From contig OX597816.1 of the NCBI GenBank assembly GCA_951406725.2, forward strand, positions 112,282,001 to 112,346,000: DNA of 64,000 nucleotides. The letters run 5' to 3'. This stretch comes from Octopus vulgaris (taxonomy: Eukaryota). The notes beneath the pieces were generated by a model. It made no database searches and was not told the DNA's origin. It worked only from the letters and a program-made list of their open reading frames with translations. The translations under genes were made by a program, and so were the position numbers. Position 1 is the first letter of the stretch. Every line of letters begins with the position of its first letter. Shown here in pieces: positions 20,984-45,625 of the stretch.

Positions 20984-21473
20984 GTAATAATAATAATAAT
21001 AATATTTCTAACAAAGGTATATGGCTTGAAACAGGAAAGAAAGGATTTGTTAATAAAATTAATCCCCTCTCTTTCTCTTAAACATTGATAACCTACTCAC
21101 CACCATCCAACAACCTTCACTCTTATGCAAACAACACAATCTTTCATCCTTCTTAATTTTTCTAATCATGCATAATCCATACACAGCCTAGACACCACAT
21201 GCCAAACCTGTACAGATTCAATAAATTGAGAGCTTGAGAAAATTGTTCAGTGAAACCAGACTAACATTGTTTCATTTAGCGACAAAATGCCCCTCAAGCA
21301 TTACTCATATAATGAAAACACCACTGCACTTCATTCTCATAAACACGAGCAACACTCAGCTAACTACTATGCAGGTAAGGAGTTAGCATCCTAGTCACAA
21401 GGTTCAGGTTCAATCCCACTGTGTGATGCCTAGTGTATGTTTTCTACTATAGCCTTGAAACAACCAATGCCTT

Positions 21474-21693
21474 ATTGTTGTTGTTGTTGTTGTTGTTAAG
21501 CAACAAGACAGGTAAGGGTGATTAGGTGATGGTCTAGGGCTTAGGGGCAGGAGACCCCAGACCTTGGAAAGAAAGAAAAAACTTTGGTTGTCTTGTTGTA
21601 GTTGAGGGCTCTTCGTTGACGCCCAACACCACTGGGAGGTGGCCCTCGAAGTCGCTAGAAATGGAGATCTCCAGGTCCAAATTCTTGAACGAC
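21474..21693 (-). mobile_element. Short (AAC)n-tailed retroposon, copy 1, with 11-bp TSD
   Basis: TSD ACCAATGCCTT at 21463-21473 and 21694-21704; it interrupts a family-A SINE; homologous to 41217-41428 and 45421-45625. Confidence 0.88.
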
Positions 21694-21789
21694 ACCAATG
21701 CCTTGTGAATTATTTGGTAGGCAGAAACTTAAGTATATCATGTGTGTGGAAGTGTTCATGCATCCTTTGATGTTGATGATGTATGTAAT

Positions 21790-39405: not shown

Positions 39406-40254
39406 TGTGGACGTTTAGAATTGTTTTTGTTTTTTTAGCAGATGGTTTCAAATTTGAAGGTGAGTAAAATTTTACCTGTGAACAAGGGGATTCTATTCCT
39501 GATACAAAGACTCCATCATTTGTTCAAGACTTTTAAAAGTAATACTGTATTATTTGAACCTAAGGCAGCAAAATCTACCATAGTAGTTTTGAAATGAAAT
39601 GTGTTTGTAAGGAAGTTAGTGTGAATATATATATGTGATATAGATTTTAGATGAAAAAAAAATCATTAGACTTTTAACAAGATTCAAGTACTTATAGCTA
39701 AAACAGATGCTTTGTGATATGGAAAGGGTGAGAGAATAGACAATGAATGAGAAGAGAATAGAAGACAAGAGTTGTTAAAAATGTAGATAATATTTGAACC
39801 AGAGAAAAATTATTGAACAATTCTGAATGAGACAACCTAGTTAAATCTAAGAGACTATGACGTTCGTCCATGAAAATATTTAAGGACATAACAATTTTAA
39901 GAAAGGGAATTGTAAAATTCTATTCATTTCCTACCAACATTAAACAATGGCAATAAAATTGTTAGTGGTGTGATTGTAGAGGAGGTGGTTGTGGTGGGTG
40001 ATGGTGGTGGTAGTGGTGGTGATGGTGGGGGTACTGTGAAGATGCAAGTGTAAAAGAATGGTCGGATAGATGGTTATCGTGGTGGTGGTGGTGGTGGTGA
40101 TTGTAGTGGTGGTGGTGGTGGATGTGGTATGGCGGTGATGGTGGTGGTGGTGTTGGCAGCAATGGCAGCAGTGATAGCAGTGGCAGCAGTAGTGTGTATT
40201 TTCTGTGCTTGAGGTAGGCAACAATAACTAGTAAAATTACAAGAAGGAACAGAT

Positions 40255-41216: not shown

Positions 41217-41425
41217 GCCGTTCAAGAATTTGGACATGGAGATCTCCATTTCCAACAACTTCGAGGGCCACCTCCCAGTGGTGTCGGGCGTCAACAAAGA
41301 GCCCTTGACTACAACAAGATAACCAAAGTTTTTTTTTGTTTTTTCCAAGGTCTGGGGTCTCCCGCCCCTAAGCCCTAGACCATCACCTAATCACCCTAAC
41401 CAGTCTTGCTGCTTAACAACAACAA

Positions 41426-41428
<3 letters not shown>
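41217..41428 (+). mobile_element. Short (AAC)n-tailed retroposon, copy 2
   Basis: GCCGTTCAAGAATTTGG...GTCTTGCTGCTT(AAC)4. Confidence 0.88.
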
Positions 41429-41463
<35 letters not shown>

Positions 41464-42852: not shown

Positions 42853-42975
42853 CTGCTGCTGCTGCTGCTGCTCTTGTTGTTGTTGTTAAGCAGCAAGACT
42901 GGTTAGGGTGATTGAATCTTGTTAAAAGTCTAATGATTTTTTTTTCATCTAAAATCTATATCACATATATATATT
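42853..42975 (-). other. Two-segment inverted templated insertion inside a family-B SINE
   Basis: 42853-42913 is the reverse complement of 41389-41449; 42912-42975 is the reverse complement of 39624-39687. Confidence 0.88.
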
Positions 42976-45420: not shown

Positions 45421-45625
45421 TTGTTGTTGTTGTTAAGCAACAAGACGGGTAAGGGTGATTAGATGATGGTCTAGGGCTTAGGGGCAAGAAATCCCAGACC
45501 TTGGAAAAAACAAAAAACTTTGGTTGTCTTGTAGTCGAGGGCTCTTCGTTGATGCCCGACACCACTGGGAGGTGGCCTCAAAGTCACTGGAAATGGAAAT
45601 CTCCAGGTTCAAATTTTTGAACGGC
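45421..45625 (-). mobile_element. Short (AAC)n-tailed retroposon, copy 3
   Basis: (TTG)n AAGCAACAAGAC...TTTTTGAACGGC; possible TSD GTGGTGCTGCTG in low-complexity flanks. Confidence 0.88.

Follow-up and report, generated by a model that had tools for sequence, protein, structure and literature searches.

The element at 41217-41428 (+), a short retroposon of about 200 nt without an ORF, is best explained, at a probability of roughly three in four, as an internally deleted Ingi-like LINE that carries a predicted HDV-like ribozyme head with a split P1, would be freed from its transcript directly before its first base, G1, and would be mobilised in trans. The evidence comes from a genome-wide family with a fixed first base, from a 3' end shared with a LINE, from inverted heads of the element on copies of this LINE, and from covariation with a sister family.

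Copies in the window and in the genome

Three copies of the element were found in the window (the whole 64-kb stretch of DNA that was analysed), at 41217-41428 (+), 21474-21693 (-) and 45421-45625 (-). The window copies were 90-91% identical to the copy at 21474-21693 (E 1e-78 to 4e-84), and all three began with the same G and ended in (AAC)n. An 11-bp target site duplication (TSD) flanks the copy at 21474-21693 (21694-21704 and 21463-21473), and a probable 14-bp TSD with one mismatch flanks that at 45421-45625, within a CAG/CAC repeat. The three copies, their shared first base, the tails and the 11-bp TSD had all been described in the original prediction and were found as described. No tRNA gene was detected in the window, and no Rfam model came near its gathering score around the copy at 21474-21693.

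A fourth match in the window, a 3' fragment of 48-61 bp at 42866-42913, was inverted and 100% identical to the 41217 copy over 61 bp. This piece (42853-42913, -) is a local duplicate of 41389-41449, comprising the 3' end and its flank, and not an independent insertion. Through a local rearrangement involving 39624-39687, 41389-41449 and 42853-42975, two nearby pieces of 61-64 bp recur as inverted, 100%-identical copies that are joined together. The density of copies between 21474 and 45625 (three in 24 kb) was well above the genome average, and CAG/AAC runs were about three times commoner in the window than in random DNA (3.4 versus 1.2 per 10 kb).

The genome (2.8 Gb, 227 contigs) was searched for further copies. 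A query with one copy returned 1,501 candidates; the 40 that were scored contained 42 near-full-length matches. An exact 32-nt pattern from the 3' part matched at 811 places genome-wide, with none for the control. This pattern was kept exactly in just 2 of 14 copies sampled independently of it, and the family, with over 800 copies, is therefore likely to number several thousand. The family was too sparse to be met by random sampling, as 20 stretches of 10 kb and 30 reverse transcriptase (RT) loci contained no copy; its absence from these 200 kb of random DNA fits a family of several thousand copies. Mean divergence from the majority sequence was 3.8% among 63 aligned copies. Contigs from sequencing runs under four organism labels also carried the element, with variants solely of the CpG type and in the T run, and these therefore add no covariation. 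Among the sequencing runs listed as containing the element, none was recorded as RNA.

The 5' ends were counted at 30 loci, the first to be listed for the 3' pattern, which all lay on contig 1. The copies aligned from nt 1-3 at 27 of these loci, two further copies started at G1 and contained a nested SINE, and one started at nt 24. TSD candidates of 6-19 bp were present at 24 of the 30 loci, many of them within microsatellites, and G1 is taken to be the element's own first base because it is fixed by TSDs in non-repetitive flanks. CA directly preceded G1 in 39 of 58 copies, and many copies lay inside CAG/AAC repeats. When the upstream flanks of the 58 copies were compared, the top-scoring shared flanks (the 8 best of 1,653 pairs) were plain microsatellite.

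The two nested SINEs (L091 and L099, at G000:C1:15599832 and C1:32377124) belong to an abundant tRNA-type SINE of ~235 bp; both lie antisense, interrupt the 3' stem at one and the same base and are accompanied by a 13-14-bp duplication. Their sequences differ, so that the shared position points to a composite subfamily or else to a preferred target. At another locus (G000:C25:28626794-28627631), three tandem copies with shared flanks indicated a local duplication.

Relationship to an RNase H-bearing LINE

The original prediction had proposed a search for a LINE with the same 3' stem and (AAC)n tail, and a LINE that shares the 3' end of the element was found. An RNase H search of the genome returned eight loci, one of which (L141) encodes RNase H and a C-terminal Cys/His (CCHC) motif and shares the last 45 nt of the element (95.6%, E 4e-16). 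Sequence comparison thus assigns the last ~45 nt of the element to the 3' end of an Ingi-like LINE that bears RNase H and resides in the same genome. In the 41217 copy, the terminus common to this LINE family, about 26 nt and the (AAC)n tail, lies at 41389-41428 (+). The LINE family gave 43 matches with ragged 5' ends. Copies continuing raggedly into a LINE ORF had been named in the original prediction as the observation that would count against a discrete element; this was not the case in the short family, where 29 of 30 loci reach nt 1-3, and it was the case in the separate LINE copies, in which the shared 45-nt 3' end does enter an ORF. The best longer homologue of this parent LINE has a single ORF of 1,265 aa with APE, RT and RNase H, as does L1Tc according to the available text of its description (PMC3185411). 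Parent copies showed RNase H and the Cys/His motif only, a 2A-like motif was not seen in them, and no named reference element occurred among the RT-homology matches.

Thirty loci of the parent LINE were fetched, two of which were at one place, leaving 29 distinct loci. In eight of the 29, the head of the element was present in inverted orientation at the 5' junction, reaching nt 1, 1, 1, 1, 3, 3, 5 and 27. Seven of these inverted heads begin at nt 108-112 when the junctions are read, and the eighth at nt 149; alignment gives starts of 93 and 123 for two heads because of an internal deletion and of a target repeat pairing with the U-run. Stubs of 7-12 nt from the same site were recognised by eye at three further LINE loci. 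The arrangement matches the pattern of twin priming, and heads that run to nt 1 imply that the template RNA began at G1.

A loop variant was carried by five of the eight inverted heads and by one of 63 short copies (Fisher p 2.5e-5). A pattern search for this variant returned 15 matches, namely 11 short copies and four inversions, two of which were new; since 11 of the 15 were ordinary short copies, the variant was abandoned as a strict marker of the LINE and is regarded as enriched in the inverted heads. At one locus (L195), the inverted head includes the 3' stem-loop (41349-41381, + in the 41217 copy) and extends beyond nt 170 into sequence that is not target DNA and starts with ATG. At another (L196), a short copy has its head and tail joined at a second, independent pair of deletion breakpoints. 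The inverted heads, the loop variant, the L195 extension and the L196 junction together indicate that the element is best read as the 5' UTR of the LINE joined to its last 45 nt, with the first ~170 nt, including the 3' stem-loop, presumably representing this 5' UTR; the evidence for the 5' end of the parent consists of ten inverted pieces and one alternative junction. Genome searches returned no forward, full-length parent (head, ORF and tail), a search for the upstream part of the parent gave two matches at one locus, and no contig was found that extended the parent past the L195 locus.

An origin from an Ingi-like LINE is highly probable. Because its 3' end traces to this LINE and its 5' part very probably does so too, the element belongs with the internally deleted LINE derivatives NARTc, RIME and the R2 SIDEs. 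The original prediction of a small RNA of unknown origin, or of a new SINE class, is thereby superseded.

Several other candidates were rejected. LINEs recovered by RVT_1 and Exo_endo_phos_2 searches, mostly CR1/L2-like and RTE-like, did not match the element at their ends. Mining for (AAC)n-tailed families and tblastn in the loci collected by then yielded no partner LINE. The CCCTAA-like 3' part had also been considered as a telomerase template, an idea given up when this part was traced to the LINE.

A sister RNase H LINE family (24 matches), whose protein is 45% identical to that of the parent LINE, was used as a comparison. One member (L258, G000:C10:3419807 onward) is a full-length Ingi-like LINE of ~4.7 kb. 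Directly behind an 11-bp TSD it begins with the equivalent G, and it carries a ribozyme-like head, a 2A-like motif and a Cys/His-rich region; tblastn covers its APE-RT-RNase H portion, with frame breaks. A 2A-like peptide near the N-terminus is a mark of the Ingi clade, and CR1/L2/Rex1 elements have 2A as well, according to the available text of PMC3708506.

A predicted ribozyme head with a divided P1

The first 92 nt of the element (41217-41308, +), starting at the TSD-defined G1, very probably adopt an HDV-like ribozyme fold, as suggested by a structural descriptor, by shuffled sequences and by covariation with the sister family. The head fits an HDV-like double pseudoknot, with a P2 of 9 bp containing one bulge, P3 (ACC/GGT) and L3 (TCCCAGT). 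Position 24 in L3 is usually C and is A here. The predicted catalytic core (41270-41298, +) comprises P3, L3, P1' (nt 67-73), G74, which would form a single-pair P1.1, and J4/2, with no P4. The candidate catalytic C79 (41295) lies in the C-G-A-A of J4/2, directly before P2'. Thus, the head shows P2 stacked on a 3-bp P3 with a 7-nt L3 (U-Y-C-N-N-G-Y), and C-N-R-A before P2' together with a G after P1', both of which are hallmarks of HDV ribozymes; C79 was present in 57 and G74 in 58 of 63 copies.

A third hallmark, a contiguous P1 of 6-7 bp from the cleavage site, is absent. P1' pairs perfectly only with nt 1-3 together with nt 40-43, so that P1 would be built from two segments, of 3 and 4 bp, around a 36-nt insert of two hairpins. 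The split 5' strand of P1 (41217-41259, +) consists of GCC (P1a), hairpin H1 (nt 4-19), hairpin H2 (nt 20-39) and the 4-nt P1b, and the insert is predicted to form a four-way junction with no base left unpaired. The seven P1 pairs, P2, P3, G74 and C79 are all intact in the family majority and in the LINE-derived heads.

The core descriptor, to which the split-P1 option was added after the sequence had been seen, matched none of 20,000 dinucleotide shuffles and no site in 200 kb of random DNA, and was passed fully by 19 of the 63 copies. Rfam gave no ribozyme match for the element or the sister family, and twister, hammerhead and pistol ribozymes were considered and discarded on inspection. Single copies were predicted to fold into a different, non-catalytic core, and the majority fold has a hairpin of nt 68-81 that covers C79. 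Of the window copies, only that at 21474-21693 passes the full descriptor, with wobbles, and one of its outer P2 pairs is broken. The 41217 copy is likely decayed because two ribozyme pairs are broken, in H2 (nt 20-39) and P1b (nt 41-69), and the copy at 45421-45625, which has G74A and a 1-nt deletion in P2, is also likely decayed.

The folds named in the original prediction were re-examined on the majority sequence of the 63 copies, which supported the 5' hairpin, the 8-bp helix and the 3' stem. The palindrome TGGAGATCTCCA is better taken as part of an 8-bp hairpin of nt 20-39. Of the two changes in the 5' hairpin of the third copy, which had been regarded as keeping the pairing, one falls in the loop and the other turns a wobble into a Watson-Crick pair; both are confined to this one copy and therefore do not constitute covariation.

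The sister head has the same P3/L3 and a small P4, and its P1 contains a 1-nt bulge about where the element has 36 nt (MAFFT gap after GCC), the exact bulged base being ambiguous when wobbles are allowed. Between the element and the sister, three P2 pairs have changed on both sides, as has one P1b pair, identified by hand since the MAFFT alignment is one column off in that strand; the covariation thus amounts to four events between two families only, with none in H1 or H2. The sister head has lost its outer P2 pair. The candidate catalytic C and the G for P1.1 are kept in the sister LINE heads. A rare short derivative of the sister family (L247-L251) carries A and not the candidate catalytic C in all four copies covering the position, and its 5' ends are uneven, with two of the five copies starting at nt 42 and 89. 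Upstream of nt 1, two sister short copies from different contigs have about 45 nt in common, an apparent 5' transduction such as uncleaved RNA would give. Active cleavage by the predicted ribozyme of the element is probable, and would likely give every copy the same starting base.

Possible head-tail pairing, alternative readings and known systems

In the majority sequence, nt 96-105 can pair over 10 bp with the 10 nt preceding the tail; the 5' strand of this head-tail helix lies at 41312-41321 (+) and the helix is partly decayed in the 41217 copy. The inverted LINE heads begin directly 3' of this strand, at nt 108-112. A predicted helix of 15 bp, with a sequence of its own, occupies the corresponding two places in the sister family, whose two inverted heads (L230 and L259) start where that helix ends. 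Among more distant relatives, 38 of 80 metagenomic loci were scanned, and five had a 2A motif, four of these with both ends. The six elements thus available (four metagenomic elements and two genome families) had longest perfect 5'-3' helices of 9, 15, 9, 11, 14 and 9 bp for cognate pairs versus 6-10 bp for non-cognate pairs, and the cognate pair was best or tied in all six, within windows that were chosen after the candidates had been seen. Shuffle p values for the six cognate helices were 0.086, 0.002, 0.096, 0.008, 0.002 and 0.198, three of them non-significant alone, and the 3' helix strand lay 60-146 nt from the tail in the distant elements. These comparisons are suggestive of head-tail pairing across Ingi-like elements. 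The ribozyme descriptor found nothing in the 38 scanned loci. Two metagenome contigs (L274:342-430 and L271:91-155) could be parsed by hand into HDV-like heads, one with a 1-nt P1 bulge and no P4.

In the cycle that we propose, a copy would be transcribed from an upstream host promoter or from its own internal Pol II promoter, and the ribozyme would cut the RNA out of the host read-through transcript exactly before G1. The head-tail helix would keep the two RNA ends together, and the LINE protein, acting in trans, would nick CAG/CAA-rich DNA and prime on the (AAC)n tail. The short template would then be copied to its end, giving full-length copies with TSDs of 6-19 bp. On long LINE RNAs, second-strand priming at nt 108-112, leaving an inverted head, would be explained by the head-tail helix. 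Much of this agrees with the original prediction, which was judged right in proposing a discrete non-coding retroposon with a fixed 5' end and without a Pol III head, mobilised in trans by target-primed reverse transcription; its suggestion of a ribozyme-processed element has become the best reading. A wider proposal, that an active HDV-type ribozyme with P1 across a four-way junction heads an Ingi-like RNA in which 5' UTR and 3' end are paired, and that such pairing is general in Ingi-like elements, is tentative and has somewhat less than even odds. If it is true, the pairing brings the cleaved head beside the integration site, turns the base that follows the helix into a hot spot of second-strand priming, and explains why these clades yield two-ended miniatures.

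It is conceivable, although unlikely, that the element has the same origin and that its ribozyme is a relic inactivated by the P1 insert, the fixed 5' end coming from an internal Pol II promoter at G1, like Pr77 in L1Tc. The first 77 nt of L1Tc are both promoter and ribozyme, with the same start base (PMC3185411, available text), P1 mismatches are described in the available text of PMC3774820 as uncommon and linked to loss of cleavage, and competing folds exist for the element. Against a relic stand the intact P1 pairs, P2, P3, G74 and C79 described above, the position of the insert at the bulge of the sister family, and the uneven 5' ends of the sister short copies that lack the candidate catalytic C.

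Far less probable is an independent small RNA that captured a LINE tail, so that the head belongs to the short element alone and the inverted heads were copied from co-bound short RNA. In its favour, no forward full-length parent was seen, and short copies far outnumber LINE copies (811 exact matches versus 43 matches); however, the inverted heads are enriched for their own loop variant, L195 continues beyond the junction of the short element, L196 has another junction, and the full-length sister LINE begins with a homologous head. A Pol III SINE whose head went unrecognised, or a MITE carrying subterminal inverted repeats, would likewise be short, non-coding and abundant, and the element does have a 10-bp subterminal inverted repeat. 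Both are largely excluded, since an internal run of four or more T, which argues against a Pol III transcript, is present in 62 of 63 copies (T-rich run at 41329-41345, +), the TSDs vary in length, the tail is a microsatellite, no tRNA or Rfam head was found, and both ends are linked to a LINE.

Ribozyme-headed LINE miniatures are already known as a class, and the internally deleted, ribozyme-headed element favoured here is of the NARTc/RIME type, its distinctive features being the split P1 and the hot spot of second-strand priming. NARTc and RIME, which derive from L1Tc and ingi of trypanosomes, are likewise ORF-less and combine the two ends, 5' and 3', of a LINE with one ORF (2A, APE, RT and RNase H), and share an HDV-like fold with the cleavage site at nt 1, a single-pair P1.1 and three G-C pairs at the base of P1, according to the available text of PMC3185411 and PMC4035085. 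In contrast to them, the element has an animal host, (AAC)n and not poly(A), G1 and not C1, no P4, a split P1, and cleavage that is predicted here. Bipartite derivatives of RTE, Ingi, Vingi and R2 elements share with it an internal deletion that keeps both LINE ends and a 5' terminus of ribozyme type (PMC5786205, Kojima 2018; R2 SIDEs, PMC3414825; available text). The head-tail helix and the fixed site of second-strand priming are features of the element for which the available text of PMC5786205 contains no mention in bipartite LINEs. These four clades are given there as the sole ones with two-ended derivatives, the reason being left open, and the helix and the fixed inversion site bear on this question. 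P4 is replaced by a few nucleotides, as in the element, in the silkmoth R2 ribozyme and an abalone example (PMC3774820, available text). The ribozyme drz-Agam-2-1 has a peripheral structured domain near P1/P2, in the J1/2 linker (PMC4908430, available text), whereas that of the element interrupts P1 itself.

Among the papers covered by a literature search, none reported a split P1, head-tail pairing in these clades, the family itself or an octopus Ingi derivative; the family may already have an entry in a repeat catalogue. If it cleaves, the element widens the HDV ribozyme fold; ribozymes with a split P1 would have been missed because descriptor searches assume an unbroken P1, and Rfam does miss the element. 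It also offers a cheap test of the size of insert that is tolerated in the substrate helix. The head-tail helix and the fixed inversion site are relevant, too, to how templates are designed for RNA-only gene insertion by Vingi/RTE systems, in which the cargo is flanked by both UTRs (PMC13708176, available text).

Other LINEs of the genome were also recorded. A third RNase H LINE family (L198-L227, 30 loci) has (AAC/ACC)n tails and internal inversions, and inspection of its 30 loci by eye revealed no head at the junctions. Two very young LINE families (L052-L080 and L111-L140) have many near-identical ORFs, of about 950 and 1,020 aa, and the former has an (ATT)n tail.
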